64,000 bases of DNA. Source: Eledone cirrhosa (lineage: Eukaryota). Location: NCBI GenBank assembly GCA_964016885.1, contig OZ024742.1, positions 346,518,001 to 346,582,000 on the forward strand, written 5' to 3'. The notes below the pieces were generated by a model. It searched no databases. It worked only from the letters and a program-made list of their open reading frames with translations, and was not told where the DNA came from. This document shows positions 5,734-57,200 of the stretch, piece after piece. The position numbers and the translations under genes are program-made. How positions within the stretch are numbered: position 1 is the stretch's first letter; each line of letters begins with the position of its first letter.

Positions 5734-5781
5734 CATATATATATATAGACACACATACATGCCGTCGGGGTCATACTATTT

Positions 5782-5847
<66 letters not shown>

Positions 5848-5895
5848 CATATATATATATAGACACACATACATGCCGTCGGGGTCATACTATTT

Positions 5896-5936
<41 letters not shown>

Positions 5937-7105: not shown

Positions 7106-7331
<226 letters not shown>

Positions 7332-7482: not shown

Positions 7483-7560
7483 ACTCCTGTTGAGAAGCCC
7501 GAGGGTTATCTGACAGCCACAAATTTTTGGCGAAACTCTATCTGTAGTTTGTCCAGGAGT
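7483..7560 (+). ncRNA. Type I hammerhead ribozyme, U3-A8 core variant
   Basis: 7-bp stem I actcctg/caggagt, core TTGAGAA (7490), stem II gcc/ggc, GAAA (7532), GTC site at 7551-7553. Confidence 0.7.
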
Positions 7561-8523: not shown

Positions 8524-8574
8524 GTATATATGTATATATATATATATGTATATGTATATATATAGGAAAAGGCA

Positions 8575-8671
8575 TAGGAAAAGGCCCCTGAACCTTTTCC
8601 TATACCCGCTCTACTACCCAAAGTATCGAGTACTCGTTATGGTCCACCTGATTCCTTACCACACTTCATTC

Positions 8672-8672
<1 letters not shown>
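8575..8672 (+). mobile_element. Short tail fragment of the intact-PLE family
   Basis: CCTATACCCGCTCTACTAC...GTTATGGTCCACCTGATTCCTTACCAC resembles 36220-36300 and the reverse complement of 33836-33920. Confidence 0.7.
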
Positions 8673-15189: not shown

Positions 15190-16182
15190 GTAGAACGTCG
15201 GACAAAATACTTTGCAGTATTTAGTTACCACTTTCTACATTCAGAATTCAAATCCCGCCAAGGTCAACTTTGCCTTTCATCCTTCCGAGGGCGATAAAAT
15301 AAATACCAGTCACGTACTGGGGTCGCTGTAATCGACTTTCCCTTTCTCCACATTGTTGGCCTTGTGTCTAAATTAGAAACCATTGAGGTCAGGGGTTGAC
15401 AGAATCGTTAGAGTGTCAAATACATTGCAGTATTTCGTTACACCCTTCTATATTCTGGTTTCAAGTACCCACCAGGTCATCCTCCCAGGGTTGATAAAAT
15501 AAAATACCACTCAAGTATTGCGGTCATTTTAACGGACTTCTCCACCCAAAACATGTCTGACCTTGTGCCATAATTAGAAATCATTATTAGAGCAATTTAT
15601 TGGCAGAGTTGGTAGAGCCTTGGACAAATGCTTAGCAGCATTTGTTCTGGTTCATTACGTTCTGAGTTCAAGCCGTGGTTAACTTCACCTTTTATTTTTC
15701 CGGGTTCGATAAAATAAAGTACAAGTATTAGAGTCGATATATTCGACTTCCCCATCATGATCACCACTAACGGCTGGTCTTGGGGCTAAATTAGAAACCA
15801 TGGCAATATCGGTAGAAGGTCGGACGCCATGCGTTGCAGCAAAGAGTTACGGCCCTTTATGGTCTGAGTTCAAATCCCGCCGAGGTTAACTTTGCCTTTC
15901 ATCCTTACGGGGTCGATGAAATAAAGTACCAGTAATACACTGGGATAATTGCTGGCCTTGTGCCAAAAGTAGAAACCATTATTATTATACTGAGGGCGGT
16001 GGGTTGGCAGGATCGGTAGAGCGTTAGACTTTCTGAGTTCTGAGTTCAAATCCTGCCGAGGTTATCTTTGCCTTTCATCCTTACTGGAACGATAAAATAA
16101 AGAACCAGTAATGCACTGGGGTCGATTTAATCGCCTTTCCCCTTCAAAGTGCTGGCTTTGTGCCAAATGTAGAAACAATTAT
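15190..16182 (+). mobile_element. Cluster of about 5 head-to-tail tRNA-derived SINEs
   Basis: Repeated A-box-like TGGCAGNATCGG, B-box GTTCAAATCC, GATAAAATAAAGTACCAG and 3' CTGGCCTTGTGCC...AGAAAC modules at about 190-200 bp spacing. Confidence 0.8.
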
Positions 16183-16659
16183 TAAACCGAGAAATAACAG
16201 ATTCTTCATTCCAGTCCCGAGCTCAAAATGAGGAACATTAAAGAGAAGAGACAGAAAAAGTGACCATGTTACATCAAGTGATAGTATACCTATGGTTGTG
16301 TGGCTAGGATGTTGGACTTACAATCATAGGGTTGTGTGTTTGATCCCTTGATCGGGTGGTATGTTCTTCAGAAAAATACTTTAACGTCGTTTCTTCCCCT
16401 TCCAAAAGTTGCAACCTCGGTATATAGTATAAACGAAAGAAACCACTTATAACATTATTTCATAGTGGAAAGTTTCTTATAAATTTACTAAGAATATATG
16501 TCAAAGTTCATACTAAGTAAAATTAATTTGTTTGAGGTGACTAATTAAATACAGAACTTAATCAGTCTGGTGATATAAGGTGGTGTTTGTAACTCCATAA
16601 AACCAGCATGAGAGACAACTTTAAGCTGACTCTTTTTCTTTATTCAGTACTTATATAAA

Positions 16660-16822
16660 AACAGGCGGCAAATTGTCAGAGTTGTTAGAAGGTCGGTTAG
16701 AATGTTTTGTGGTGTTCATTTCTGATCTCTGCTCTCTAAGTTCAAATCCCGCTGAGGTCAACTTTGCTTTTCATCCATTTGAGGTTGATAAAAAGTACCA
16801 GTCTAGTACTGGGGTCGATTCT
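16660..16822 (+). mobile_element. tRNA-derived SINE
   Basis: AAGTTCAAATCCCGCTGAGGTCAACTTTGCTTTTCATCC...AGTACTGGGGTCGA. Confidence 0.75.
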
Positions 16823-19442: not shown

Positions 19443-19444
<2 letters not shown>

Positions 19445-20119
19445 AAGGCGGGTAAAATTCCCGAGATCCATGGACGAGTTCTCTCCAGCGGTCTCTGTCC
19501 CTCATTATCGCTGCCATATCCTGCATCTCCAACAGACCAGTGTCTGTCCTTAGGGCATCAACATATGTTAACCTTGATCTTCCTCTTCTAGTGTGTCCAT
19601 GTAGGGGCTCCCAAAGGAGCACTGAGTGCAATGTCAACTCTGGATGTCGGTGAGCATGTCCAGCCAACCTCAGTCTCCTCTGTGTCACTTTTGAGCTGAC
19701 TTTTGGGATGCTCCCATACAGCTCTGAGTTTTTCATCCTCAGTGTATACTGATTAATGTTCAGAGCCATCCTCAGCATTCTCGTGTAGCACCCATCCACC
19801 ATCTGAGTGAGTTTCTTGGTCAGTGTCCAAGTCTCAGACCCATACAGCAGCACAGACTCCACTACAGCAATGAAGAGGCGGATTTTCAGGTCTCTACGAA
19901 GGTCCGACTTCCACACCGATCTCAAGCTGTGGCACGCCGCCCAGGCCTTGCTCTTCCTCTCAACCACATCATCCTCCGTATTCCCAATCTTTGCTCCCAA
20001 ATACAGGGAGTCCTCAACCAATTCCAGCGGCTTCCCGCCTACATTAGTGATCCCCTCTGGCTTCTCAACATTCTCTACCAGATATTTTGTTTTAGTCTCA
20101 TTCATTCTCAGCCCCACAC
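19443..20119 (-). mobile_element. 5'-truncated RTE-clade LINE, RT C-terminal 224 aa still open
   Basis: GLRMNETKTKY, YLGAKI, KIRLFIAVVESVLLYGSETW, RRLRLAGH, RRGRSRLTY; the 3' end abuts (TA)n. Confidence 0.85.
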
Positions 20120-20697
20120 TAGGCTTTTATATTTATATGTGAGCTGATAGAGTACAGTCTAAGGATTTACAGAAACCCATGAAGCTAGATTTAACACCTG
20201 TCTAGTGGGTCCGGGTATGATTTTACATTCATTTATATTATTGACGTATTGTTTTATTGATATTTTTTATCTGTTTGTCCCGAATCTTCCTTTATCGATT
20301 TTAAATCGTATGGTTGATTGTAGACTTGTTCTATATGTGACGGTATTTTAACGATAGTTATAGCTCTGATTCATCTGAATTATTGAGCCCTCTGCCGCTC
20401 ATGTCGAATCTCGTTTATCGTGAACTCGTGCGCCGATTTTTCGATACTCGATCTTTCTAATATATTTAGCTCTGGACATAGCTATCCACCAGTTAATTTT
20501 ATTGCTCATTTTTTGTCGATTCTATTGAGTGATGAATAGCTTTTGTTTTATTTTAACATGTCTATTGAGCACTCTAATTCGATATGTGTATTTCCACATT
20601 CACTCGAATTGTTTTCGCGGATATAGGGGTTATCTCCCTTGTCTAATGCCATGTGCGTTTTTCACTGGTAGTTGGCTCCTCTACCGCCAGGAAAAAA

Positions 20698-20833
20698 ACT
20701 CGTTGAGAAAGTAAAACTCCGTTCCGCTTGCTCTAGTAGGCTTTTATATTTATATGTGAGCTGATAGAGTACAGTCTAAGGATTTACAGAAACCCATGAA
20801 GCTAGATTTAACACCTGTCTAGTGGGTCCGGGT
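20698..20833 (+). ncRNA. Type I hammerhead ribozyme, U3-A8 variant, extended stems II and III
   Basis: actcg/cgggt stem I, TTGAGAA (20703), gtaaa/tttac stem II, GAAA (20789), ACCCA..CTAGA/TCTAG-TGGGT stem III, GTC at 20826-20828. Confidence 0.75.
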
Positions 20834-21313
20834 ATGATTTTACATTCTTTTAATTATTGACGTATTGTTTTATTGATATTTTTTATCTGTTTGTCCCGAA
20901 TCTTCCTTTATCGATTTTAAATCGTATGGTTGATTGTAGACTTGTTCTATATGTGACGGTATTTTAACGATAGTTATAGCTCTGATTCATCTGAATTATT
21001 GAGCCCTCTGCCGCTCATGTCGAATCTCGTTTATCGTGAACTCGTACGCCGATTTTTCGATACTCGATCTTTCTAATATATTTAGCTCTGGGCATAGCTA
21101 TCCACCAGTTAATTTTATTGCTCATTTTTTGTCGATTCTATTGAGTGATGAATAGCTTTTGTTTTATTTTAACATGTCTATTGAGCACTCTAATTCGATA
21201 TGTGTATTTCCACATTCACTCGAATTGTTTTCGCGGATATAGGGGTTATCTCCCTTGTCTAATGCCATGTGCGTTTTTCACTGGTAGTTGGCTCCTCTAC
21301 CGCCAGGAAAAAA

Positions 21314-21449
21314 ACTCGTTGAGAAAGTAAAACTCCGTTCCGCTTGCTCTAGTAGGCTTTTATATTTATATGTGAGCTGATAGAGTACAGTCTAAGGATT
21401 TACAGAAACCCATGAAGCTAGATTTAACACCTGTCTAGTGGGTCCGGGT
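21314..21449 (+). ncRNA. Second copy of the U3-A8 hammerhead
   Basis: Same motif as 20698-20833 shifted by 616; GTC at 21442-21444. Confidence 0.75.
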
Positions 21450-21686
21450 ATGATTTTACATTCATTTATATTATTGACGTATTGTTTTATTGATATTTTT
21501 TATCTGTTTGTCCCGAATCTTCCTTTATCGATTTTAAATCGTATGGTTGGTTGTAGACTTGTTCTATATGTGACGGTATTTTAACGATAGTTATAGCTCT
21601 GATTCATCTGAATTATTGAGCCCTCTGCCGCTCATGTCGAATCTCGTTTATCGTGAACTCGTGCGCCGATTTTTCGATACTCGATC

Positions 21687-21758
<72 letters not shown>

Positions 21759-27246: not shown

Positions 27247-27528
27247 AAAGTATGTGTTCCTACATGTAAGTAATACACAGAGGGATACGACCGTATGCCA
27301 GTGTGGTTCAATGGTAAGTTAATAAATTTACAAGCCAGAACATATAAAATCAGTGAATATTTTGAAATTTATTTTAAAATGTTTTCTTTATTTGCTTTCC
27401 CTTGATTTTATATGTTCTGGCTTGTTAATTTAGTAACTTACCATTGAACCGCACTTTCATACGATCGGACTATACTTGTATGCCTATGTGTATTATTTAC
27501 ATGTAGGAACATATACTTTTATTATTAT
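27241..27528. repeat. Diverged fold-back repeat
   Basis: 27241-27351 is inverted at about 27402-27528; the spacer is shared with 28030-28090. Confidence 0.7.
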
Positions 27529-27529
27529 T

Positions 27530-27732
27530 CTCCCCAGGGCGGTGGATTGGCAGTATCGGTAGAGAGTCGGACACCATGCTTTGAAGCATAGAGTTACGTC
27601 CATTTATGATCTGAGTTCAAATCCCGCCGAGGTTAACTTTGCCTTTCATCCTTACGGCGTCGATAAAATAAAATACCAGTAATGTACTGGATAATTGCTG
27701 GCCTTGTGCTTAAAATAGAAACAATTATTATT
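27530..27732 (+). mobile_element. Full-length tRNA-derived SINE
   Basis: TGGCAGTATCGG A box, GAGTTCAAATCC B box, family body and ATT tail. Confidence 0.8.
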
Positions 27733-28795: not shown

Positions 28796-30050
28796 AGTTA
28801 ACAGCAGGTGGGATACGAGGGAGGATCAATATAGATTTCATGTTGTATTACCTCCTAGTCCCAATGTTGATGGTACCACTGGAAACAACCACCCAGGTAC
28901 TAACACGGGGTCTGAGCACCGTAATGCCAGCGGAAACTCTAATTGTAACCTTAATTGTAGAACTGATAAAACAACCGTTGAACGTAAAATGGAACGAGGG
29001 TCGAGTAGAGGGAATAGGGATAAATGTAGCAGATGCACAGTAGATATAACCCCGGCTATCGACGGTAATCCCAATGGCTTCACGGGAGGTACACTGCCCC
29101 GGAGACTTGGGACGATTCCGAACACAATCGGGACACCCCAGAACATCATCAACCCACAGGCAGTTTTCAGTTATAATAGACCAGTAGCTACTAAGGAGAC
29201 AGGTAACTCTAATATAGTTAGTAAAAACAAGAGGCATCGGACCAGAAAAATCCTGTGGTATAACCCCCCTTACTCCACTGACCTGACCACTAGTATAGCT
29301 AAGCTTTTCTTTAGGGCATTATACAAATGCTTCCCTAGATCACACAGATAATATAAAATATTCAATAGGAATACCATCAAGCTGTCCTACTCCACAACCA
29401 GTAACATAGCTCAGAATATAGCTAAGATGAATTATAGTAGACTTAGGATAGCCCAAGGGGGGACTAGACATGGCAGAACTAATGGCAGCTCTATGGATGA
29501 ACGGACTCATGCACGTGAGGCGAGTCGGGTCACACCAACCCCTGGGAATTTACCCATAGAGCAGACAAGAACTGAGACTCCAAAGTTACCGTGGTTCCTG
29601 TGGAACAACCCAGGTCGATAACAGAAAATGTAATTGCAGGAACACCGCCACTTGCCCCATGGCTGGGAAATGCCTCACCAAAAACATAGTCTACGACTGT
29701 AAGGTCTCCACTCTTGATAGAACCTTCAGGTATGTTGGGGCAACTGCCACTGAATGTAAGGCTAGATGGTATAATCACCGCAATACCTTTAATAGATTAG
29801 ATTTAAAAAATAGCACGGCGCTTTCTGAATTAGTCTGGAAGCTTAAACAACAGAATATAGAGTACTCCTTATCCTAGTCCATAATTTGCTCAGCCCAGCC
29901 TTATAACGGCAGCACTGGCGTCTGTAATTTATGTATAGCTGAGATCTTTAATATTATTAGAGGCGGCCCCCTATTAATCAATAGGAGAACGGATTCTTTC
30001 AGCAATTGCCAACTAGAACCTCGAAAACCTTCCGCAGGATTTTTGGAAAG
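28796..30050 (+). pseudogene. PLE post-RT linker plus GIY-YIG, with stops and frameshifts
   Basis: RKILWYNPPYS...IAKLFF...CFP, NRNTIKLSYSTT and CLTKNIVYDCKV...YVGATATECKARWYNHRNTF...STALSELVWKLK are collinear with ORF 36232. Confidence 0.85.
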
Positions 30051-32920: not shown

Positions 32921-33403
32921 TACCTCGTTTTACTAGCTTCAAGAACGCGTCTATATGATGTGAGAAAGAATCCCAAAAGGCGGAAGGGGAGATAGTCACG
33001 TGATACAACGGTCAAGAAACAGAGCTAAGCCTCTTATAACCCCGAAAAAATACCACGGAGGCGGAGGGGGTATTTATATCGAAGCCGTAGAAGAGGTGGT
33101 GAAGGAGGCGAGAAGTATGAGTACTGGCAGCTTTCCAGCAGTCACCACACTTCAAAGATTACTCGACCAGAGGGAGTTATGAACAATATATTTAGAAACA
33201 CACAGATACATGAATATCTCCACATCCATCCTTGAGTTAATGGTGCCAACCTTAACCGATGTTGCTCTATGAATAACTGGGACAGACCAATCCGGTTGGA
33301 TTAGACTGAACCAGTATCAGAGCTAAAAGTACATTATGAAGAGAGAAGAAACATTTAGATATAATTAGTAATAAAATGTATCATACCTAAACTGCATCTA
33401 GAT

Positions 33404-33493
33404 TCCTCGACTACGTAGTTTCGTGGCATAAACAAAAACAATACATCATAAAGATATAGAGCTTTTGCGAGGTCTGCCGACTTATCAAGAGGA
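33404..33493 (-). ncRNA. Second tandem copy of the U3-A8 hammerhead
   Basis: Same motif as 32831-32920 shifted by 573. Confidence 0.75.
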
Positions 33494-33758
33494 TACCTCG
33501 TTTTACTAGCTTCAAGAACGCGTCTATATGATGTGAGAAAGAATCCCAAAAGGCGGAGGGGGAGATAGTCACGTAATACAACGGTCAAGAAACAGAGATA
33601 AGCCTCTTATACTGGTTCAGTCTAATCCAACCGGATTGGTCTGTCCTAGTTATTCATAGAGCAACATCGGTTAAGGTTGGCACCATTAACTCAAGGATGG
33701 ATGTGGATATATTCATGTATATGTATGTGTCCGCATGTATCTGTGTGTTTCTAAATAT

Positions 33759-33835
<77 letters not shown>

Positions 33836-33926
33836 CGAAGGAAATGTGGTAAGGAACCAGGTGGGCCATAACGCACCAAAGTACTCAATACTTGAGGTAG
33901 TAGAGTGGGTAATAGGAACCAGTAAG

Positions 33927-34020
33927 ACCCCGACAGCTGAGCTCAAGCCGTTTCGACGGCTAATTCTGGACTAAATGAAAATTTATCCTGGTATTTAAAT
34001 AGCCGATCTTCTCAAGGGGT
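33927..34020 (-). ncRNA. U3-A8 hammerhead in the inverted pLTR
   Basis: Reverse complement of 36117-36210. Confidence 0.75.
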
Positions 34021-36116
34021 AATTCCATATATGGTCAAAGTGATTGTCAAAAATCAGTAGTAATTCTGTGGTTGCAAATTAGTAGGGGAGATGGTGGCTA
34101 AACCTGCCAGTAGGAGAAAGAGGGGAGGGGGTGGAGTAGACCCAATCAAGCGTTGGTAGTGCCAGCTACAGCTGGGCATGAGGTCAAAGAAGATACAGGG
34201 GAGGGGGAGGGGGAGGAAGTCGGAACGGTAGGTAGAACAATGGGGGGTAGAAATATATAGGAAAGAAAAAATACTGAGAGTGAAGAAAAGCAAATAAGTG
34301 TAAAGAAAAAAGTAAAGTAAATTAAATTCTACGACCTAGGTCTCAGGCTATTGTTAGGCTAGAATAAAATAAAGAAAGAAAGAAAGAAGTAAAGAAAGAA
34401 ATAAATAAAGAAATAACGAAATAAGTAAAAGAACTAGGTGGGACGGTATAGGCAAGGACCCTTTTAAGAGGTATAAGTACGTAAATGATACGGTGACGGG
34501 TCAACAAAAGGGGCCAAAATACTAAAGAGACTACCACGAAATAAACAATAAAGGTTTCCATCCCGGGCCAGCAACGACCCAGTGCAGCAAAGTGAACTTG
34601 TACGAGATAATAATTCTGAGTCCCGAGAAAAATATATACTAATGCTAACTCTAAAAGATCTAAAACAAGCTACATGAAAGTTCGTACGAAATAAAGGTAG
34701 AATACGGAGAAATAAATTCAGAATCCACCCCGCCCAGAAGAAAAGCGAAGCAAGAAATACTGAAACGAAAAAATAAGGCATAAGTGCCACTAAGAAATAT
34801 AGAGGGCACAGAGAATAGTGGGAGCGGTCGGAAAAAGGGGGCAAGTATCCGGGGTCTAAGCCAACTGCTATAAAGGGCGGAGTCCGCCAAATCTATCATA
34901 GACTAGGGGAGGGGTGGTGGGGGTACTAAGGCTACATGGGGCCAAAGGGCAGCCTCGGGTGGGCGAGAAAAGACGCCGACAAAGGAGAAGAGCTGGGGTA
35001 GAAGGACTAAGGAGAGAGGGGGGAAGGAAATAAAGGAAGCGATAAAAGAATACAAAGAAGATCTTACGTCTTCCTTGGCAAGCAGGGGTTACATCGCTTC
35101 CTTTATTTCCTTCCCCCCTCTCTCCTTAGTCCTTCTACCCCAGCTCTTCTCCTTTGTCGGCGTCTTTTCTCGCCCACCCGAGGCTGCCCTTTGGCCCCAT
35201 GTAGCCTTAGTACCCCCATCACCCCCTCCCCTAGTCTATGATAGATTTGGCGGACTCCGCCCTTTATAGCAGTTGGCTTAGACCCCGGATACTTGCCCCC
35301 TTTTTCCGACCGCTCCCACTATTCTCTGTGCCCTCTATATTTCTTAGTGGCACTTATGCCTTATTTTTTCGTTTCAGTATTTCTTGCTTCGCTTTTCTTC
35401 TGGGCGGGGTGGATTCTGAATTTATTTCTCCGTATTCTACCTTTATTTCGTACGAACTTTCATGTAGCTTGTTTTAGATCTTTTAGAGTTAGCATTAGTA
35501 TATATTTTTCTCGGGACTCAGAATTATTATCTCGTACAAGTTCACTTTGCTGCATTGGGTCGTTGCTGGCCCGGGATGGAAACCTTTATTGTTTATTTCG
35601 TGGTAGTCTCTTTAGTATTTTGGCCCCTTTTGTTGACCCGTCACCGTATCATTTACGTACTTATACCTCTTAAAAGGGTCCTTGCCTATACCGTCCCACC
35701 TAGTTCTTTTACTTATTTCGTTATTTCTTTATTTATTTCTTTCTTTACTTCTTTCTTTCTTTCTTTATTTTATTCTAGCCTAACAATAGCCTGAGACCTA
35801 GGTCGTAGAATTTAATTTACTTTACTTTTTTCTTTACACTTATTTGCTTTTCTTCACTCTCAGTATTTTTTCTTTCCTATATATTTCTACCCCCCATTGT
35901 TCTACCTACCGTTCCGACTTCCTCCCCCTCCCCCTCCCCTGTATCTTCTTTGACCTCATGCCCAGCTGTAGCTGGCACTACCAACGCTTGATTGGGTCTA
36001 CTCCACCCCCTCCCCTCTTTCTCCTACTGGCAGGTTTAGCCACCATCTCCCCTACTAATTTGCAACCACAGAATTACTACTGATTTTTGACAATCACTTT
36101 GACCATATATGGAATT

Positions 36117-36210
36117 ACCCCTTGAGAAGATCGGCTATTTAAATACCAGGATAAATTTTCATTTAGTCCAGAATTAGCCGTCGAAACGGCTTGAGCTCAG
36201 CTGTCGGGGT
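36117..36210 (+). ncRNA. Type I hammerhead ribozyme, U3-A8 variant, 5' pLTR
   Basis: acccc/ggggt stem I, TTGAGAA (36122), ga(t)cggcta/tagccgtc stem II, GAAA (36183), ACGGCT/AGCTGT stem III, GTC at 36203-36205. Confidence 0.8.
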
Positions 36211-36231
36211 CTTACTGGTTCCTATTACCCA

Positions 36232-38553
36232 GTGCAGCAAAGTGTATTGAGTACTTTGGTGCGTTATGGTCCACCTGGTTCCTTACCACATTTCCTTCGT
36301 TATCTAACTCCTACTCCCGTAGTAGAGCACTTTCCGACCCTACCACGCCGTATCCAGACTTTTCCGCTAAGCTCAATTCATTTCACCCGCACCATGCGAA
36401 AACACAACATTGACTTCTCTACCAAGAACATCCCAATCCCACCGAAAAAACTTTACCTTCGGATGCTCACGCAAAAAATCGATCTATTTGCGAAAAGACT
36501 TAGATGGAGAACTTTTTTCTATGACAGATATTGCGACAACCAAGACTTCGGCACCAAGGAGAGATTCGGATTTATTACCTACAAATCTTCGCCCCTGAAC
36601 CCCTTGCTCGCACCCTTCGAGAATGACCTCTTCCAACTGGTCAAGAACATTAAATTTAAACCCAGACACAACCGATTCCTACAAAAACTCCGTAGCAACT
36701 TAACAGAGTATGATAACACAAATGACATCATGGTGCATTCGGATAAAACTGGGAACCTATACTTTGTCAACCCTGACAGATACCACACACTGATCAGGAG
36801 CAGCCTAAACTCCACCTATAAAAAGGCCAACCACTCTTGCATCGAGGACATAAATCGAGATGGACAACAAATCACCTCCAGCCTCGGGGTCGCCGACCGC
36901 ACGGAACCTCTAGACCCACGGACACCATACTTCACACTGAAGGACCATAAATCCGATTTTGACCGTAAACCCTCTATCAGGCTTATTAACCCAACGAAGT
37001 CTGACATAGGGAGAATCGGCAAAAAAATCCTAGACCGCGTGATACCAAAAGTCAAGCAACACACCCGACTTAGCCTATGGATCAACACCCAGCAAGTAAT
37101 CTCCTGGTTCAGCAATATGGAGGATAAACGAGAAACTAAATTCATACAGTTCGACATAGAGAGCTACTATGCTTCAATCACCTTACCGCTACTTACTGCC
37201 GCCTTGGACTTCGCCGAAACACTTGTGCCCATCACCGACCAGGAAAGAAAAATCATGCTCCACGCCAGGAAGACAGTCTTACTCTTTGACGACTCTAAAT
37301 GGATAAAAAGAGCTCCCGACTCACCCTTCGACGTCAGCATGGGCGCCACGGATTCGGCGGAGGTCACAGATCTTATAGGATTATTCCTAATAGCCAAACT
37401 CACTGATATGTTTCCTGCATTCGGTGGTGGATTGTACCGTGATGATGGGCTCCTTACCCTTAAAGGGTACAACCCCAGTAGTACAGATCGGGTCCGGAAA
37501 CAATTAATCAGATTCTTCCGCGACTGGGGATTTAAAATAACCCTACAAACGTCCCTGACCCGAGTAAACTTCCTGGACGTGACCCTCGACCTCGAAAACG
37601 ACCTGTACTACCCATACAGGAAACCTAATGACAATCTGCACTACATCCACCGCCGATCAAACCATCCTAGGAACATCACAAACAACCTGGTCAAAAACAT
37701 CTCCCTCCGCATATCCCGTTTGTCAGCTAATGAGCGGATATTCGATGAACATGCGCCTTATTACAACCAGGCCCTCAAGCGGAGTGGTTTCCGGGAGGAA
37801 ATATCCTACTGTCCAGCTCCCATTAGCGGAACCAGCAGGAGACACCGCCGCTCACGCAATGTAACATGGTTCAATCCTCCCCACAATGCAGAGGTGACAA
37901 CTCCCATCGGGAAACTATTCTTTAGGCTCATTGAAAAACACTTCCCATTACAACACCGCTACCACAACATAATTAACAAAAATACCATCAAACTCTCTTA
38001 CAGCACTACACCAAACTTCGCACAAAACATCGTCTCCTCTAACAACAAAAAACTCAACCCCGATGGCAGAAATAACCTAAATAGCAGTGGAGAACCGACC
38101 AGGAGGTGTAACTGCCCGGATAGATCTATTTGCCCACTCGACAATAGATGCAGAGACCGTAATGTGATCTACCAGTGCAACGTGAGGACGGATACCTCCA
38201 ACAAAGCCTATATAGGACTTACCGCATGTGACTTCAAGACCCGGCTATACCAACATAGACATACCTTCCGAAACCCGGCCCGGCGTCACGCCACTACACT
38301 TTCGGGCCACATATGGGACCTCAAGGACAACAACATCACCTATGATCTCACTTGGAGATTACTGTCCAGAGCCAATTCTTACACGGGAGGACGCCGTCCG
38401 TGCAATTTATGCTCGGAGGAAACTTTACAAATGCTGTTTTCGACGGACCAACTCCTAAACAAGAAAGATGAACTGGTCACTGCATGTAAACATAGATTGC
38501 GTAGGACTTACCTCGCCCTCAAACCCCATAATGACCCGGGGGGGGTAGACTAG
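36232..38553 (+). CDS. PLE reverse transcriptase plus GIY-YIG endonuclease (first ATG 36394, 719 aa)
   Basis: RT motifs FIQFDIESYYASI, FDVSMGA, GLYRDDGL and VNFLDVTL; WFNPP; CNC..CPL..C; VIYQC...YIGLT...R...H; CNLCSEE; no interruptions. Confidence 0.95.
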   Translation: MQQSVLSTLVRYGPPGSLPHFLRYLTPTPVVEHFPTLPRRIQTFPLSSIHFTRTMRKHNIDFSTKNIPIPPKKLYLRMLTQKIDLFAKRLRWRTFFYDRYCDNQDFGTKERFGFITYKSSPLNPLLAPFENDLFQLVKNIKFKPRHNRFLQKLRSNLTEYDNTNDIMVHSDKTGNLYFVNPDRYHTLIRSSLNSTYKKANHSCIEDINRDGQQITSSLGVADRTEPLDPRTPYFTLKDHKSDFDRKPSIRLINPTKSDIGRIGKKILDRVIPKVKQHTRLSLWINTQQVISWFSNMEDKRETKFIQFDIESYYASITLPLLTAALDFAETLVPITDQERKIMLHARKTVLLFDDSKWIKRAPDSPFDVSMGATDSAEVTDLIGLFLIAKLTDMFPAFGGGLYRDDGLLTLKGYNPSSTDRVRKQLIRFFRDWGFKITLQTSLTRVNFLDVTLDLENDLYYPYRKPNDNLHYIHRRSNHPRNITNNLVKNISLRISRLSANERIFDEHAPYYNQALKRSGFREEISYCPAPISGTSRRHRRSRNVTWFNPPHNAEVTTPIGKLFFRLIEKHFPLQHRYHNIINKNTIKLSYSTTPNFAQNIVSSNNKKLNPDGRNNLNSSGEPTRRCNCPDRSICPLDNRCRDRNVIYQCNVRTDTSNKAYIGLTACDFKTRLYQHRHTFRNPARRHATTLSGHIWDLKDNNITYDLTWRLLSRANSYTGGRRPCNLCSEETLQMLFSTDQLLNKKDELVTACKHRLRRTYLALKPHNDPGGVD

Positions 38554-39660
38554 GGCTATAACACCCCACTTGCCGATTTTGCAATGGGTAACCCCTGCTT
38601 GCCAAGGAAGACGTAAGATCTTCTTTGTATTCTTTTATCGCTTCCTTTATTTCCTTCCCCCCTCTCTCCTTAGTCCTTCTACCCCAGCTCTTCTCCTTTG
38701 TCGGCGTCTTTTCTCGCCCACCCGAGGCTGCCCTTTGGCCCCATGTAGCCTTAGTACCCCCACCACCCCCTCCCCTAGTCTATGATAGATTTGGCGGACT
38801 CCGCCCTTTATAGCAGTTGGCTTAGACCCCGGATACTTGCCCCCTTTTTCCGACCGCTCCCACTATTCTCTGTGCCCTCTATATTTCTTAGTGGCACTTA
38901 TGCCTTATTTTTTCGTTTCAGTATTTCTTGCTTCGCTTTTCTTCTGGGCGGGGTGGATTCTGAATTTATTTCTCCGTATTCTACCTTTATTTCGTACGAA
39001 CTTTCATGTAGCTTGTTTTAGATCTTTTAGAGTTAGCATTAGTATATATTTTTCTCGGGACTCAGAATTATTATCTCGTACAAGTTCACTTTGCTGCACT
39101 GGGTCGTTGCTGGCCCGGGATGGAAACCTTTATTGTTTATTTCGTAGTAGTCTCTTTAGTATTTTGGCCCCTTTTGTTGACCCGTCACCGTATCATTTAC
39201 GTACTTATACCTCTTAAAAGGGTCCTTGCCTATACCGTCCCACCTAGTTCTTTTACTTATTTCGTTATTTCTTTATTTATTTCTTTCTTTACTTCTTTCT
39301 TTCTTTCTTTATTTTATTCTAGCCTAACAATAGCCTGAGACCTAGGTCGTAGAATTTAATTTACTTTACTTTTTTCTTTACACTTATTTGCTTTTCTTCA
39401 CTCTCAGTATTTTTTCTTTCCTATATATTTCTACCCCCCATTGTTCTACCTACCGTTCCGACTTCCTCCCCCTCCCCCTCCCCTGTATCTTCTTTGACCT
39501 CATGCCCAGCTGTAGCTGGCACTACCAACGCTTGATTGGGTCTACTCCACCCCCTCCCCTCTTTCTCCTACTGGCAGGTTTAGCCACCATCTCCCCTACT
39601 AATTTGCAACCACAGAATTACTACTGATTTTTGACAATCACTTTGACCATATATGGAATT

Positions 39661-39754
39661 ACCCCTTGAGAAGATCGGCTATTTAAATACCAGGATAAAT
39701 TTTCATTTAGTCCAGAATTAGCCGTCGAAACGGCTTGAGCTCAGCTGTCGGGGT
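39661..39754 (+). ncRNA. U3-A8 hammerhead in the 3' pLTR
   Basis: Same motif as 36117-36210; GTC at 39747-39749, 20 nt before the element end. Confidence 0.8.
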
Positions 39755-39774
39755 CTTACTGGTTCCTATATATA

Positions 39775-40481
39775 TATACTATAAATTATGTCCATAGAAT
39801 CATTTTATAATATATATACACAATTTCCTCTCCCAATTAGCATAATCAACCACACAAAAACCCAATTAAACCAGGCTATAAGATTAAAAGGCACTTATGA
39901 AGAAATAATAGATAAATAAACTATAGCCATCTATTCGCGATCAACAGCCATAGAATATTTACCCACCATTTCAATAGCACGTGGAAATCGATTAAATATA
40001 CCGTCAACCATACACAATTAGGTACAAAATTAAAGTTAGAAGAAAAAATGCATATACATATACCAGGATTACGTTTCTACCCTTTAGGGTTTCGTTCGCT
40101 TTCGGAAATATCCTATCAAGGATAAATTCTCGAGCTTCGAACTCATCAGGAAATAAACTCACTTGGACAAAGATTTTTCTTAAATGATCCTCGCCAGAAA
40201 CGAATTCAAAATGGCTGAGAACTGTGACGGGGCAGTGGTCAAGTCAGAAAAAATGTGATTGGTCCCTTACGACGAGTGGGCTGGTTGCTAGAAAGCGCAG
40301 CCCAATATTGCCTAAATTGCATCTCAACCTTATGGAAGATTATCAAATATAAAAATTTACATATACACAAACTAGACAAAGTCATAGATATATATGTTTT
40401 GGCAATCATTCACGATGTGGCTCAATGATGAATTAATAAATTAAATAATCAGAGCAATATACTATATATTATGTCCATAGA

Positions 40482-43924: not shown

Positions 43925-43994
43925 TACAACATTACAAACACAGGCATAAATATATGCACTCTCTATCTGTTGGGTTCCTCTGAAGGTTCTTTAG

Positions 43995-44130
43995 AATAAT
44001 TGTTTCTACTTTTGGCACAAGGCCAGCAAATTACCCAGTACATTACTGGTACTTTATTTTATCGACCCCGGAAGGATGAAAGGTATAGTCAACCTCGGCG
44101 GGATTTGAACTCAGATCGTTAAGGGACGTA
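43995..44130 (-). mobile_element. tRNA-derived SINE, truncated
   Basis: Reverse complement of the family body (GGATTTGAACTCAG). Confidence 0.75.
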
Positions 44131-44134
44131 ACTG

Positions 44135-44384
44135 TGCCCAGTCCTCCATGTAGGGGGTGTTGACTGCAGATGGACCGCCTGACCATCGGAGCGCGTCCCT
44201 TCCACAAAAAGAGATAGTGCAAACGCTCCAGTGAAGTCAGGCGAGACTTAGGACAAGGCATGACGGTCAGGCGGTAGTAGATGACGGACGCGATGTACGC
44301 GTTCGCCACCTCCGCTCGACCTTTCAGGGAGAGCTTCCTCTCGGCCCATTTCTGGGTGAGAGAGGCAACCCTGCTCGTCGCCAA
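44135..44384 (-). pseudogene. Tx1/L1-clade LINE ORF2 fragment
   Basis: W..RKLSLKGR..VAN..IAS...Y......P...L..LER....FLW.G...VRR......P...GGLG, the typical post-RT L1/Tx1 motif. Confidence 0.8.
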
Positions 44385-44595
44385 TGATTTCTACTATAGG
44401 CACAAGGCCCACAAATTTGGGGAGAGGGGAAAGTCGACAAATCGACCCCAGTGCATTACTGGTACTTTATTTTATTGACTTCTTAAGGACGAAAAGAAAA
44501 GCCTACCTCGGTTCTGAACTCAGAACGTAAAGGGCCGTAACTCTATGCCACTAAGCATGGCATCTGATGCTCTACCGATTACTGCCAATTCACCT
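44385..44595 (-). mobile_element. tRNA-derived SINE
   Basis: Family body on the minus strand through CTCTACCGATTACTGCCAA (A box). Confidence 0.75.
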
Positions 44596-45181
44596 CCTTT
44601 GTTCATGTAAATAATCATGTTGATTTCTTAATCCTAAACACATCTTTCAAATAAATAAAAGCGATCATATATATTGATGATGATGATGATGATAGTGGTG
44701 GGGGCGATGATGGTGATGGAAGTGGTTGGGGGGGTGATGATGATGGTGATGATGATGATGATGATGATGATGATGTTGATGATGGTAGTGGTGGTGGGGG
44801 GAGGGGTCATGACGATGGTGGTAGTGGTGGTGGTGGGGGGTGATAGTGATGATGATGATGATAATAATGAGAATGATAATGGTGATGATTGTGACGATTG
44901 TGATCATGATGATAATAACAACAACAACAACGACGACGACTACAACAACAATATAAACGATATTCAATTCCTTTGCATCTTATCTGTAACATCAAAATGT
45001 TGGTTCCTAAAAGGAGAGTTGTGGAGTAGAAAGTTTCTTTTAGATTCTTTTAGTCCGTAGATACACATCACGTGCCATCAAAGTGGAATTATGTTCTCAA
45101 CTTTATATATCAAACATACCAATCTCTAGTATAAAATTGCATACGCGTAAATATACACATAGACCTAAATATATTCATACA

Positions 45182-47778: not shown

Positions 47779-47780
<2 letters not shown>

Positions 47781-48005
47781 CAAAGGAATTGTGGTAAGGA
47801 ACCAGATGAACCATAACGCACCAGAGTACTCAATACTTAGGGTAGTAGAGTGGGAAATAGGAAAAAGTATGACCCCGACGGCAGAGCTCAAGCCGTTTCG
47901 ATGGCTATTTCTGGACTAAATTAGAATTTTAGTCCAGAAATTCTAATTTAGTCCAGAAATAGCCATCGAAACGGTTTGAGCTCTGCCGCCGGAGTCATAC
48001 TTCTT

Positions 48006-48010
<5 letters not shown>
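47779..48010. mobile_element. Fold-back of 3' ends of the intact-PLE family within (TA)n
   Basis: 47779-47921 matches 33836-33976 (diverged); 47946-48010 is the opposite orientation. Confidence 0.85.
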
Positions 48011-49686: not shown

Positions 49687-50625
49687 GTGGAACACTGGAA
49701 GGTAATATCCGTAGTGGTAGAGCACTCAGTCCAAGGGACGAGTTAGGTAGAAGTGGTTACACAACAGTTAGTTCACCATACCGAGAACAATTGTTTCACC
49801 TTCGCGGATCTTCAGCTCGGGATGTGTATGGTTATAGGAACAGGAAGGACAACTGTACGAACGCGCATGCGCAGAAACTCGGTCATTTCACACAGGCAAT
49901 AGTAGACTGCGTGCGGGAGGTGTAAGGGAGATAACTGCGAAAGACCGGAAAGTTTTTAGGTTGAAAATAAAATAAAAAAATTAAAAATTAAATAACAAAG
50001 AATCAGTCCGGAGCCTTGTAGTTATGCAATAGATGTTTGGTGACGTGTGGACAACGTGTGAAAAATTCAGTTCTCGTGTTTAGGCAATCACTATTAGGAT
50101 AGTTATTCGTTCGTCAATACATAAGCCACACGTTGGATTTCCCCTTGCGTATGGCTTGGACTTAGTGATGGCTTTCCATTGAATGGAGTAGCCTATACTT
50201 GAGTCCTTGAGGGACCATACGTGGCTCGCGAGTTTCGTGGATGTCCGGGTATCTGAAGGTAGACTGGTGGTTCAGGAAGCGCTCCTTGAATCGGCCCTCC
50301 GCCATGCCCACATAGGATTTGACCTCCTGTGGTTCGTTTGGTCGGTTGGAAGTGACCACAGCTTCATAGATTACAGCTAGTGTGTTGCATTGCTGTTGAA
50401 GGGGGCAAGCTTCAGGCTTACGGCAAGAGCACCCTGGTGTGGTTTTGCTCCTAGGGCTGCTGGTGATGTGGGCCTTTATGTTCTTAGCGCAGGAGTATCC
50501 TAGTTTAACTTTGTGTCGGTTAAAGATAAAGCGGTATTTGTGACCTATGGGGAAGTGTCTATCTAAGAGGCCTAGAAATGTTTTGCTACATTGGTTTTAA
50601 CGTTGAGTGAGAAGGGAGGAGAGAA
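49683..50625 (-). mobile_element. 5'-truncated PLE (GIY-YIG end plus pLTR), family of 9652-10890
   Basis: SYVGMAEGRFKERFLNHQSTF; the 3' end joins (TA)n at the same nucleotide context as the 10890 end. Confidence 0.85.
49781..49820 (-). ncRNA. Minimal hammerhead ribozyme
   Basis: Reverse complement: ccgag-CTGAAGA-tccgcgaaggt-GAAACAATTGTT-ctcgg. Confidence 0.7.
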
Positions 50626-50909
50626 CCCACTAGCAGTAAGCGCATCAATAGACAAACTATCTGGTTCTCTCCCCCTCCCCCCTTCTCACTCAACGTTAAA
50701 ACCAATCTATATTTAATAATTTAAAGGAACAAATATAGAGTTAATACATGAATATTATATAATTGTTTCTACTATTTTGGCACAAGGCCAGCAATTACCC
50801 AGTGTATTACTGGTACTTTATTTTATCGACCCCGTAAGGATATTATATAATAACACGAGTGGAAATAGATTTAATTCATTTGGAATTAGTATTAAAGAAA
50901 TTGGCAGTA

Positions 50910-51103
50910 CAGGCTGCGAATTGGCAATATCGGTAGAGGGACGGACGCCATGCTTTCCAGCATAGTTAAGTCCCTTTACAGTCTGAGTTCAAATCCCGTC
51001 GAGGTTAACTTTGCCTTTCATACTTACGGGGTCGATAAAATAAAGTACCAGTGATGTACTGGGGTAATTGCTGGCCTTGTACCAAAAGTAGAAACAATTA
51101 TTA
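50910..51103 (+). mobile_element. tRNA-derived SINE (partial opposite-strand copy at 50760-50840)
   Basis: TGGCAATATCGG, GAGTTCAAATCC, family body and tail. Confidence 0.8.
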
Positions 51104-51181
51104 AAGAAGATATTTTAATTTGGAATTAGGATTTTTCTTCTTTGTTTTGTACTGTGAAGACTCGTGACCTAATGGTTAGGG

Positions 51182-51217
51182 CAGAGGTGAGGAACCTTTT
51201 TATGTTGAAAGGCCGCA
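51182..51217 (+). mobile_element. Putative hAT (Charlie-type) transposon terminus
   Basis: CAGAGGTGAGGAACCTTTTT...AAAGGCCGCA resembles CAGGGGTGGGGAACCT-type TIRs and their subterminal sequence; no partner TIR is in the window. Confidence 0.5.
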
Positions 51218-54200
51218 TTGTAATATAAGTCCACATTAAGATACTTGTAATATAAGCCCACATTAAGATGCTTGTATTATAAGCCAACATTAAGATACTT
51301 GTATTAAAAGCCTACATTAAGATACTTGTAATATAAGCCTAGATTAAGATACGTGTATTATAAGCCAACAGTAAGATACTTGTATTATAAGCCTACATTA
51401 AGATACTTGTAATATAAGCCAACATTAAGATACTTGTAATATAAGCCTACATTAAGATACTTGTAATATAAGCCCACATTAAGATACCTGTATTATAAGC
51501 CTACAGTAAGATATTTGTAATATAAGCCTTCATTAAGATACTTGTATTATAAGCCTAGATTAAGATACTTGTAATATAAGCCAACATTAAGATACTTGTA
51601 ATATAAGCCAACATTAAGATACTTGTAATATAAGCCTAAATTAAGATACTTGTAATATAAGCCCACATTAAGATACTTGTAATATAAGCCCACATTAAGA
51701 TACGTGTAATATAAGCCTAAATTAAGATACTTGTAATATAAGCCTAAATTAAGATACTTGTAATATAAGCCTACATTAATATACTTGTAATATAAGCCTA
51801 CATTAGGATACGTGTAATATAAGCCTACATTAAGATACTTGTAATATAAGCCAACATTAAGATACTTGTAATATAAGCCTAAATTAAGATACTTGTAATA
51901 TAAGCCTACATTAAGATACTTGTAATATAAGCCTACATTAAGATACGTGTAATATAAGCCTACATTAAGATACTTGTAATATAAGACAACATTAAGATAC
52001 TTGTAATATAAGCCTAAATTAAGATACTTGTAATATAAGCCAACATTAAGATACTTGTAATATAAGCCGACATTAAGATACTTGTAATATAAGCCTACAT
52101 TAAGATACTTGTAATATAAGCCTCCATTAAGATACTTGTATTATAAGCCTACATTAAGATACTTGTAATATAAGCCTACATTAAGATACTTGTATTATAA
52201 GCCTTCATTAAGATACTTGTAATATAAGCCTACATTAAGATACTTGTATTATAAGCCTACATTGAGATACTTGTATTATAACCCCACATTAAGACACTTG
52301 TAATATAAGCCTACATTAAGATACTTGTATTATAAGTCTACATTAAGATACTTGTAATATAAGCCGACATTAAGATACTTGTATTATAAGCCTACATTAA
52401 GATACTTGTAATATAAGCCTACATTAAGATACTTGTATTATAAGCCTACATTAAGATACTTGCATTATAAGCCCACATTAAGATACTTGTAATATAAGCC
52501 TACATTAAGATACTTGTATTATAAGCCTACATTAAGATACTTGTAATATAATCCCACATTAAGATACTTGTAATATAATCCCACATTAAGATACGTGTAA
52601 AATAAGCCAACATTAAGATACTTGTAATATAAGCCTACATTAAGATACTCGTAATATAAGCCTACATTAAGATACTTGTAATATAAGCCAACATTAAGAT
52701 ACTTGTAATATAAGCCCACATTAAGATACTTGTAATATAAGCCAACATTAAGATACTTGTATTATAAGCCTACATTAAGATACTTGTAATATAAGCCGAC
52801 ATTAAGATACTTGTAATATAAGCCTACATTAAGATACTTGTAATATAAGCCAACATTAAGATATTTGTATTATAAGCCTACATTAAGATACTTGTAATAT
52901 AAGCCTACATTAAGATACTTGTATTATAACCCTACATTAAGATACTTGTAATATAAGCCTAAATTAAGATACTTGTATTATAAGCCCACATTAAGATACT
53001 TGTAATATAAGCCAACATTAAGATACTAGTATTATAAGCCTACATTAAGATACATGGAATATAAGCCTACATTAAGATACTTGTATTATAAGCCAACATT
53101 AAGATACTTGTATTATAATCCCACATTAAGATACTTGTAATATAAGCCTGCATTAAGATACTTGTATTATAAGCCGACATTAAGATACTTGTATTATAAT
53201 TCCACATTAAGATACTTGTAATATAAGCCTACATTAAGATACTTGTATTATAAGCCCACATTAAGATACGTGTAATATAAGCCAACATTAAGATACTTGT
53301 AATATAAGCCTAAATTAAGATACTCGTAATATAAGCCTCCATTAAGATACTTGTATTATAAGCCAACATTAAGATACTTGTATTATAAGCCCACATTAAG
53401 ATACTTGTAATATAAGCCTTCATTAAGATACTTGTAATATATGTCTACATTAAGATACTTGTAATATAAGCCTCCATTAAGATACTTGTATTATAAGCCT
53501 GCATTAAGATACTTGTATTATAAGCCTACATTAAGATACTTGTAATATAAGCCTACATTAAGATACTTGTAATATAAGCCGACATTAAGATACTTGTAAT
53601 ATAAGCCAACATTAAGATACTTGTATTATAAGCCTACATTAAGATACTTGTAATATAAGCCGACATTAAGATACTTGTAATATATGCGAAAATTAAGATA
53701 CTTGTAATATAAGCCCACATTAAGATACTTGTAATATAAGCTTTCATTAAGATACCTGTATTATAAGCCTGCATTAAGATACTTGTAATATAACCCTACA
53801 TTAAGATACATGTATTATAAGCCTACATTAAGATACTTGTAATATAAGCCTAAATTAAGATAGTTGTATTATAAGCATACATTAAGATACTTGTATTATA
53901 AGCCTACATTAAGATACTTGTAATATAAGCCAACATTAAGATACTTGTATTATAAGCCTACATTAAGATACTTGTAATATAAGCCTGCATTAAGATACTT
54001 GTATTATAAGCCTACATTAAGATACTTGTATTATAATCCCACATTAAGATACTTGTAATATAAGCCTTCATTAAGATACTTGTATTATAAGCACACATTC
54101 AGATACTTGTATTATAAGCCTACATTAAGATACTTGTAATATAAGCCAACATTAAGATACTTGTAATATAAGTCTACATTAAGATACTCGTAATATAAGC

Positions 54201-57200
54201 CTACATTAAGATGCTTGTAATATAAGCCTACATTAAGATACTTGTAATATAATCCTACATTAAGATACTTGTAATATAAGCCTACATTAAGATACTCGTA
54301 ATATAAGCCTACATTAAGATACTTGTATTATAAGCCTACATTAAGATACTTGTAATATAATCCCACATTAAGATACTTGTATTATAAGCCTTCATTAAGA
54401 TACTTGTAATATAAGCCTACATTAAGATACTTGTATTATAAGCCTACATTGAGATACTTGTATTATAAGCCCACATTAAGACACTTGTAATATAAGCCAA
54501 CATTAAGATACTTGTAATATAAGCCTCCATTAAGATACTTGTATTATAAGCCTACATTAAGATACTTGTAATATAAGCCTACATTAAGATACTTGTATTA
54601 TAAGCCTTCATTAAGATACTTGTAATATAAGCCTACATTAAGATACTTGTATTATAAGCCTTCATTGAGATACTTGTATTATAAGCCAACATTAAGACAC
54701 TTGTAATATAAGCCTACATTAAGATACTTGTATTATAAGTCTACATTAAGATACTTGTAATATAAGCCGACATTAAGATACTTGTATTATAAGCCTACAT
54801 TAAGATACTTGTAATATAAGCCTACATTAAGATACTTGTATTATAAGCCTACATTAAGATACTTGCATTATAAGCCCACATTAAGATACTTGTAATATAA
54901 GCCTACATTAAGATACTTGTATTATAATCCTACATTAAGATACTTGTATTATAAGCCCACATTAAGATACTTGTAATATAATCCCACATTAAGATACTTG
55001 TAATATAATCCCACGTTAAGATACGTCTAAAATAAGCCAACATTAAGATACTTGTTATATAAGCCTACATTAAGATACTCGTAATATAAGCCTACATTAA
55101 GATACTTGTAATATAAGCCAACATTAAGATATTTGTATTATAAGCCTACATTAAGATACTTGTAATATAAGCCTACATTAAGATAATTGTATTATAAGCC
55201 TACATTAAGATACTTGTAATATAAGCCTAAATTAAGATACTTGTATTATAAGCCGACATTAAGATACTTGTAATATAAGCCAACATTAAGATACTTGTAT
55301 TATAAGCCTACATTAAGATACTTGGAATATAAGCCTTCATTAAGATACTTGTATTATAAGCCAACATTAAGATACTTGTATTATAATCCCACATTAAGAT
55401 ACTTGTAATATAAGCCTACATTAAGATACTTGTATTATAAGCCCACATTAAAATACTTGTATTATAAGCCCACATTAAGATACTTGTAATATAAGCCTAC
55501 ATTAAGATACTTGTATTATAAGCCCACATTAAGATACGTGTAATATAAGCCAACATTAAGATACTTGTAATATAAGCCTAAATTAAGATACTCGTAATAT
55601 AAGCCTCCATTAAGATACTTTTATTATAAGCCTACATTAAGATACTTGTATTATAAGCCCACATTAAGATACTTGTAATATAAGCCTTCATTAAGATACT
55701 TGTAATATAAGTCTACATTAAGATGCTTGTAATATAAGCCTACATTAACATACTTGTATTATAAGCCTACATTAAGATACTTGTAATATAAGCCGACATT
55801 AAGACACTTGTAATATAAGCGAAAATTAAGATACTTGTAATATAAGCCCACATTAAGATACTTGTAATATAAGCCTTCATTAAGATACTTGTATTATAAG
55901 CCAACATTAAGATACTTGTATTATAAGCCTACATTAAGATACTTGTATTATAAGCCTACATTAAGATACTTGTAATATAAGCCTAAATTAAGATAGTTGT
56001 ATTATAAGCATACATTAAGATACTTGTATTATAAGCCGACATTAAGATACTTGTAATATAAGCCAACATTAAGATACTTGTATTATAAGCCTACATTAAG
56101 ATACTTGTAATATAAGCCTCCATTAAGATACTTGTATTATAAGCCTACATTAAGATACTTGTATTATAAGCCCACATTAAGATACTTGTAATATAAGCCA
56201 ACATTAAGATACTTGTATTATAAGCCTACATTAAGATACTTGTAATATAAGCCTCCATTAAGATACTTGTATTATAAGCCTACATTAAGATACTTGTATT
56301 ATAAGCCCACATTAAGATACTTGTAATATAAGCCTTCATTAAGATACTTGTAATATAAGTCTACATTAAGATACTTGTAATATAAGCCTACATTAAGATA
56401 CTTGTATTATAAGCCTACATTAAGATACTTGTATTATAAGCCTACATTAAGATACTTGTAATATAAGCCTACATTTAGATACTTGTAATATAAGCCAACA
56501 TTAAGATACTTGTAATATAAGCCAACATTAAGATACTTGTATTATAAGCCTACATTAAGATACTTGTAATATAAGCCTACATTAAGATACTTGTAATATA
56601 AGCCTTCATTAAGATACATGTATTATAAGCCTTCATTAAGAAACTTGTAATATAAGCCTACATTAAGATACTTGTATTATAAGCCTACATTAAGATACTT
56701 GTATTATAAGCCCACATTAAGACACTTGTAATATAAGCCTACATTAAGATACTTGTATTATAAGTCTACATTATGATACTTGTAATATAAGCCCACATTA
56801 AGATACTTGTATTATAAGCCTACATTAAGATACTTGTAATATAAGCCTACATTAAGATACTTGTATCATAAGCCTACATTAAGATACTTGCATTATAAGT
56901 CCACATTAAGATACTTGTAATATAAGCCTACATTAAGATACTTGTATTATAAGCCTACATTAAGATACTTATATTATAAGCCAACATTAAGATACTTGTA
57001 ATATAATCCCACATCAAGATACTTGTAATATAATCCCACATTAAGATACTTGTTATATAATCCCACATTAAGATACTTGTAATATAATCCAACATTAAGA
57101 TACTTGTAATATAAGCCTAGGTTAATATACGTGTAATATAAGCCAACATTAAGATACTTGTATTATAAGCCTACATTAAGATACTTGTAATATAAGCCTA

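Follow-up and report, generated by a model that had tools for sequence, protein, structure and literature searches.

A locus of Eledone cirrhosa (assembly GCA_964016885.1, contig OZ024742.1) bears on how Penelope-like elements (PLEs) make their pLTRs and on the role that their hammerhead ribozymes play. We analysed a stretch of 64,000 nt of this contig (the window), in which positions 33834-39769 hold a near-intact and likely recent copy of a Hydra-type Penelope-like retrotransposon with three repeats, each bearing a predicted hammerhead. At a probability of roughly 60%, our reading is that a full-length Hydra-clade PLE inserted into (TA)n, likely target-primed from two fixed internal sites, with its hammerhead likely uncut. 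From left to right, the element comprises an inverted pLTR (A), a direct pLTR (B), a 719-aa ORF with RT and GIY-YIG domains and a 3′ pLTR (C), with the following features (window positions and strand; +n, nucleotides from the predicted cut):

33763..33833, no strand: left (TA)n target tract, 71 nt
33834..35092, minus: inverted pLTR A, a copy of the 3′ UTR from the equivalent of 38588; outer end at site 2, about +98 from the cut
33834-33911, minus: tail of arm A, 78 nt
33915..34026, minus: predicted type I hammerhead A, core starting at 34015, predicted cut after 33932; extent taken from an identical folded copy
35044..35092, minus: asymmetric spacer of the A/B palindrome, 49 nt (alignment, direct reading)
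35093..36225, plus: direct pLTR B, 1133 nt, 99.7% identical to C; its tail runs to 36301
36111..36222, plus: predicted type I hammerhead B, core UUGAGAA at 36122, predicted cut after 36205
36206..36393, plus: leader, 188 nt, containing site 1 (36225), site 2 (36301-36303) and a uORF
36232..36244, plus: templated patch, 13 nt in place of 15 nt of family tail
36266-36307, plus: out-of-frame uORF, 13 codons, its AUG at 36266 (+60)
36394 (ATG) to 38553 (stop), plus: ORF of 719 aa within the stop-to-stop frame 36178-38553
38554..39769, plus: 3′ UTR and pLTR C; homology to A begins at 38588, and the end lies at site 1 (+20)
39655..39766, plus: predicted type I hammerhead C, core at 39666, predicted cut after 39749
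39770..39778, no strand: right (TA)n tract, about 9 nt, followed by an older, unrelated hammerhead-bearing repeat

Several claims of the first-pass annotation were borne out by this layout: alignment placed arms A (minus), B and C (both plus) in the inverted-plus-direct arrangement it described, the ORF that it called uninterrupted runs through 719 codons without a stop or frameshift, and the two sense hammerheads said to bracket the ORF at a distance of 3544 nt do so (39749 − 36205 = 3544). Its (TA)n flanks hold on the left (71 nt), but only about 9 nt follow on the right; because the target consists of TA repeats, a target-site duplication is unreadable. The proposed RNA start about 190 nt before the first ATG agrees with 188 nt to the first in-frame ATG but overlooks the out-of-frame AUG at 36266. 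The frame is also open upstream of the ORF's ATG (36178-36393); coding use of this stretch was dismissed, as the unpatched tail shifts the frame by 2 nt. Neither AATAAA nor ATTAAA is present on the sense strand of 38554..39769. Two older repeats (33184-33762 and 39775-40460) flank the TA tract of the element, and microsatellite insertions appear to accumulate in a nested fashion.

The encoded protein carries the following motifs (residue numbers):

RT part: RWR 37-39, DKT 117-119, D254, YRDD 348-351
Linker and endonuclease: CxCx5C 572-580; GIY-YIG residues Y593, Y606 and G608 with R617, H621, E676 and N689
Endonuclease cysteines: CxxC 670-673; CxH 698-700

A Pfam search of the protein returned no family and a PDB sequence search nothing under E 1, and 1968 of 8000 scored candidates were homologues, mostly about 700 aa long at about 40% identity. 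In alignments with homologues, D254, D350, D351, Y593, Y606, G608, R617, H621, E676 and N689 are all the majority residue. The structure model reached a pLDDT of 92.9. Telomerase RTs were its best Foldseek matches (3du5, E 2.6e-8) and a telomerase RT its best VIA match (Z 16.4, rmsd 4.4, 285 aligned), with DGR and DRT RTs within 1-2 Z units of telomerase RTs in VIA. Matches in the whole-protein fold searches were filled by RTs and included no GIY-YIG structure, and a single-sequence model of the endonuclease domain alone gave a pLDDT of 34. The C-terminal domain aligns to the Pfam GIY-YIG stretch of a homologue, P0001, and the putative GIY-YIG assignment rests on the motifs together with that Pfam match. 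P0001 itself is an annotated mollusc protein with two tandem Hydra-type RT-endonuclease stretches, probably because a partial tandem insertion was merged into one gene model.

The element shows the marks of an endonuclease-bearing (EN+) PLE: a telomerase-like RT and GIY-YIG in the same ORF, direct and inverted pLTRs with a one-sided tail and, on structural grounds, a type I hammerhead in the pLTRs. Within the EN+ PLEs, we used the definition of the Hydra clade in the relevant passages of PMC8557442. The element resembles that clade in its single ORF of RT and C-terminal GIY-YIG, in its (TA)n target and in a hammerhead near the 3′ end (PMC8557442). RWR replaces RWK, as it also does in Hydra-1_Crog (PMC8557442), and the third residue is R in 23 and K in 24 of 59 representatives; GxKF/Y is absent and DKG is changed to DKT. 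The linker cysteines are C572, C574 and C580, and CCHH is missing, with one non-conserved Cys between Y593 and Y606. C670/C673 precede E676, C698/H700 follow N689, and there is no IFD, D254 to G317 spanning 63 residues versus 64 by eye in Hydra-1_Obim. The CCHH-bearing endonuclease and DKG of Penelope/Poseidon, Neptune and Nematis are thus not found, nor are the N-terminal endonuclease and IFD of Naiad and Chlamys, the endonuclease motifs here being C-terminal. The Penelope-like, Hydra-type assignment made at first sight therefore stands, the comparison with named references being by eye. Hydra-1_Obim was the closest by eye among the six novel families compared (PMC8557442), with identity at 23 of the 44 N-terminal positions and at 13 of 18 positions around RT motif B.

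Two descriptive traits of the clade differ. Hydra elements are generally under 3 kb, with 1080-3045 bp in the 27 consensus sequences listed in PMC8557442, versus a unit of 3544 nt here, which exceeds all 27 owing to a stop-to-cut 3′ UTR of 1196 nt. Their hammerheads have a C3-G8 core (CUGANGA in 26 of 26 Hydra ribozyme rows of the supplement of PMC8557442, whose methods describe a CUGANGA descriptor), whereas the core here is U3-A8; full pLTRs are present in this element. We take the element to represent a new family within the known Hydra clade, one set apart by its variant ribozyme core and its long 3′ UTR. In a FastTree phylogeny built with P0001 left out and without named reference clades, the two closest homologues group with the protein (support 1.0). 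At 50% identity, 825 clusters, which may include non-Hydra proteins, score E ≤ 1e-30 against it, and the Hydra clade looks far larger than the 27 published families.

The copy was also said to be intact, which holds for the frame and the catalytic residues but is qualified by Ala260, the leader patch and the out-of-frame upstream AUG. In two alignments, 119 of 120 and 102 of 111 homologues have Pro at position 260, and Ala at this conserved RT position is the main doubt on the protein, which departs from its homologues at 21 of 162 conserved columns. The patch, on which the first-pass annotation did not remark, lies within 36227-36244, which equals 34577-34594 and the reverse complement of 39087-39104; with five flanking bases, it exactly matches the antisense pLTR interior and carries the allele of A and C, not that of B. 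The 15 nt that it replaced are present in A, in a related copy at 47.8 kb and, with small changes, in another at 8.6 kb. Such a patch may be the signature of a template switch, from integration or later repair, and its position between the two end sites may affect the use of this copy as a donor. That the copy, though young, does not act as a donor, owing to the patch, Ala260 or silencing by the 1.1-kb hairpin, comes somewhat short of even odds in our judgement and is compatible with the other readings discussed below. The retention of the unpatched family tail in A and the departures at conserved columns speak for it; against it, 8 of the 21 deviations are common to both closest homologues, which form a clade with the protein, and the 719 codons contain neither a stop nor a frameshift.

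Hammerheads were searched across the whole window with a type I descriptor that allows N3-N8 covariation, which gave 11 matches, three of them within the arms of the element. These three have the core UUGAGAA, GAAA and a GUC site, the U3-A8 pair being the rarer core, and were missed by a strict CUGANGA-type core search of the window. They are likewise absent among the 150 of 172 Rfam matches listed, in which the hammerhead matches were weak HH9 at 45.4 and 45.8 kb. Rfam matches to miRNA families at 34949-35188 were rejected, as this is the centre of the palindrome. The minimum-energy fold is a three-way hammerhead junction, both alone and in 257 nt of context, its stability is not above that of shuffled sequences (z −0.46), and four helix I pairs have probabilities of 0.95-0.98. 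Helix III of hammerhead B has 5-6 bp and a loop with a GAGCUC palindrome, and divergent copies of the family change a G-U pair of helix III to G-C. The U3-A8 core is known from Schistosoma PLEs (PMC4209133), and our literature search found no cleavage rates for it. In other systems, cleavage by a ribozyme can bring about cap-independent translation (PMC13725137); such a role for the predicted hammerhead of this element is a possible lead, not a result.

Other hammerheads occur in the window. An unrelated type I candidate with a U3-A8 core lies at 7490-7553 (plus), and its minimum-energy fold is not a hammerhead junction. At least four further hammerhead repeat families have C3-G8-type cores, at 19131 (plus), 28239 (minus) and 31522 (plus); at 10766 (plus), with an inverted arm near 9713; at 40149 (minus); and at 45445 (minus) and 45801 (plus). 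In those that were scored, the ends again lie downstream of the predicted cut.

Where the ends of the element's own family lie can be read from related copies in the window:

5761..5900, plus: tandemly duplicated pair of related ends at site 1, 26 nt each; weak match (E 0.09)
7146..7210, minus: truncated related copy, 95% identical, ending at site 1
8568..8672, no strand: tiny related insertion, 82% identical, with an 11-nt inverted site-1 arm and a direct site-2 arm
47779..48010, no strand: truncated related insertion, 84-88% identical, head to head, with site 2 on the left and site 1 on the right

The window contains nine outer ends of the family, six at +20 (five independent, as the six include one tandem duplicate; one 11-nt arm was seen only by motif scan) and three at +96 to +98, and none of the nine falls at the predicted cut. 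All three double-ended insertions of the family use one site per end, and both end sites of the element finish in TAT, merging with the target. Ends past the predicted cut imply that the template ran through the ribozyme, as an uncut precursor or a religated circle. None of the short copies of the same family reaches further upstream than −52, so that each misses the first half of the core (−84); we read them as 5′-truncated products.

One-sided ends are not confined to this family. We picked by hand from a self-BLAST 16 head-to-head inverted insertions in microsatellites (window 4879-50709), a set of mixed families of which only some were shown to be PLEs. Twelve of the 16 meet a microsatellite at both ends and could be scored. 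None of these 12 has symmetric ends: in 11, one end carries a tail of 63-149 nt, and in the remaining one the difference is 15 nt. For nine of the 11 tails, a homologue is found elsewhere in the window, and we therefore take the tails to be element sequence. If two equally used sites were chosen independently, 0 of 12 symmetric would have a probability of 2.4e-4, a figure to be read with the hand-picked, mixed sample in mind. One-sided PLE tails are already known (PMC8557442; PMC3846280), and those seen here are consistent with priming at two fixed positions within the RNA, each serving one strand of the target. Against this, roughly half of the palindromes have a nearly symmetric centre, which hints at fold-back.

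In the reading that we favour, a read-through transcript of pLTR-ORF-pLTR would be translated into the RT-GIY-YIG protein, whose endonuclease would nick both (TA)n strands. Site 1 (+20, immediately downstream of helix I) would be primed from one nick and site 2 (about +98) from the other, in both cases with a TAT overlap of 3 nt with the target. The site-1 cDNA would have copied C, the ORF and B, the site-2 cDNA would have copied A, and the two would have been joined head to head at 35092/35093. The ribozyme would mainly trim transcripts, possibly allowing cap-independent translation, and would not define the priming end. A Poseidon PLE studied in vitro starts at two internal sites, cutting and extending both strands, and hammerhead mutations leave it unaffected (PMC11167929). 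In the same work, neither start favoured one of the strands and the RNA start shared no homology with the target, and the one-site-per-end rule was not found in the parts of that study that we cite. The strict site pairing and TAT overlap seen here differ from this in vitro result, which is a point against the favoured reading, as is the need for a linear donor to include at least 1.18 kb of 5′ pLTR in the transcript.

The template could instead have been a circle: both hammerheads would cut, the 3544-nt RNA would be ligated, and RT from site 1 would run 1.32 turns to give C-ORF-B, with A copied from site 2. This model, proposed in PMC4209133, accounts for B-ORF-C measuring exactly 3544 + 1133 nt (1.32 turns) and, since religation rebuilds the junction, for ends past the cut, and helix III is stable enough for a monomer fold. 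On a circle, however, the leader would exist only once, yet the tail of A and the leader of B differ by the patch and a substitution, so that an extra event is needed; moreover, the Poseidon PLE gave no reads ending at the cut, and cleavage was dispensable (PMC11167929). We regard a circular template as unlikely.

Alternatively, a single cDNA may have folded back into a hairpin, the endonuclease resolving the intermediate at site 1, in which case only one of the two sites primes. The truncation points of A and B lie no more than 49 nt apart, several further palindromes come close to symmetry, one tail per insertion is accounted for, and the patch could mark the join of the left and right halves; endonuclease resolution and self-priming have been proposed earlier (PMC8557442, PMC3846280). 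The 35092/35093 join, read directly, shows no microhomology, single-arm copies (7146, 5786) also end at site 1, and for a related PLE two RT starts have been mapped by direct measurement (PMC11167929), which together make fold-back quite improbable.

The first-pass annotation had pointed to a doubly cleaved, unit-length RNA (36206-39749), and its priming from its own 3′ end as a linear template, suggested by the two sense ribozymes that bracket the ORF 3544 nt apart, has hardly any probability left, since C extends 20 nt and A about 98 nt beyond the cut and no end of the nine lies at it.

An origin of the repeat identity or the palindrome as an assembly or fold-back read artefact has a similarly negligible chance. 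A 1.1-kb near-perfect palindrome and one homopolymer indel could point that way, but every arm has private differences, A lacks both the two substitutions and the patch of B, and both outer ends coincide with sites used by independent copies of 82-95% identity. B and C differ by three substitutions in 1133 nt, A and C by one substitution and one C-run indel in 1182 nt, and the tail of A has one further A-private substitution. The pLTR copies therefore do differ at only a handful of positions, overall four substitutions, one indel and one templated patch. Four substitutions in 3632 arm sites correspond to 0.11% (95% interval 0.03-0.28%), which under an octopus repeat calibration (distance 0.09 = 25 My; PMC13282606) suggests an insertion age of about 0.3 My (0.08-0.8), an upper bound because RT and assembly errors are also counted. 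The insertion, described at first as very recent, is young, but its age is bounded only to roughly less than 1 My.

We did not find support for the further suggestion that such an element mobilises nearby hammerhead repeats: these have no detectable sequence in common with its pLTR, and the short copies of its own family are truncated ones. Two of these nearby hammerhead-repeat families lie on their own Hydra-type endonuclease fragments, and trans activity through pLTR sequence has been reported for a rotifer family. Broken fragments of Hydra-type endonuclease ends are found at 4128-4550 (minus), 9907-10494 (minus), 29214-30027 (plus) and 50015-50593 (minus); the four are mostly 29-35% identical to the ORF, and the pair at 9.9 and 50 kb is 83% identical in DNA.

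Other features of the window include an ORF fragment at 19443-20126 (minus) that matches only DUF6451 in Pfam and presumably resembles the 3′ end of a LINE RT. It adjoins a 99% identical tandem duplication with a period of about 617 bp (20120-21692). A dispersed repeat of 130-190 bp, SINE-like in size, has many copies of 70-90% identity (15190-16817, 27441-27732, 43987-44597 and 50759-51108). From 51217 to 64000 extends a long tandem array of 27/54-bp period, its copies about 91% identical, which runs off the end of the window.

Among known systems, Poseidon PAc of Anolis carolinensis (Frangieh et al., 2024; PMC11167929) likewise has a tail set by two end sites that lie downstream of the hammerhead, an AT-rich target and use of both strands. 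It belongs to another clade, its start sites lie inside the ORF whereas those of this element lie in the non-coding leader, and the tail here is 78 nt versus the 30-40 bp quoted for PAc; the TAT target overlap and one site per end distinguish the element further. The hammerhead of the Schistosoma Cercyon PLE (Cervera and de la Peña, 2014; PMC4209133) shares the type I pLTR fold and the U3-A8 covariation; the Cercyon motifs are minimal and thought to act as dimers, whereas helix III has 5-6 bp and helix II a long extension here. Non-LTR retrozymes (bioRxiv 10.64898/2026.07.22.740005) also comprise type I hammerhead repeats linked to PLE pLTRs, but they are non-coding tandem arrays, whereas this element has coding capacity and the short members of its family in the window are truncated copies rather than ribozyme units in tandem.

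A wider proposal, tentative and in our view doubtful, is that integration of Hydra-type PLEs is obligately asymmetric and two-sited, with one RT subunit priming at the site near the ribozyme and the other at the distal site, one per target strand, and exactly one tail per double-ended insertion, that the template is a ribozyme-intact RNA, possibly the 3.5-kb circle, and that this copy, whose U3-A8 hammerhead is of the monomer type, is active. Our literature search found no functional work on the Hydra clade. The end statistics of the window argue against priming from the 3′ end of a cleaved RNA and leave the uncut precursor and the circle as templates. The element is not a new kind of system, and its value is that of a test case: the locus, in which the ORF is full, the pLTRs are complete and the end sites have been mapped, offers a substrate for testing how PLEs move.
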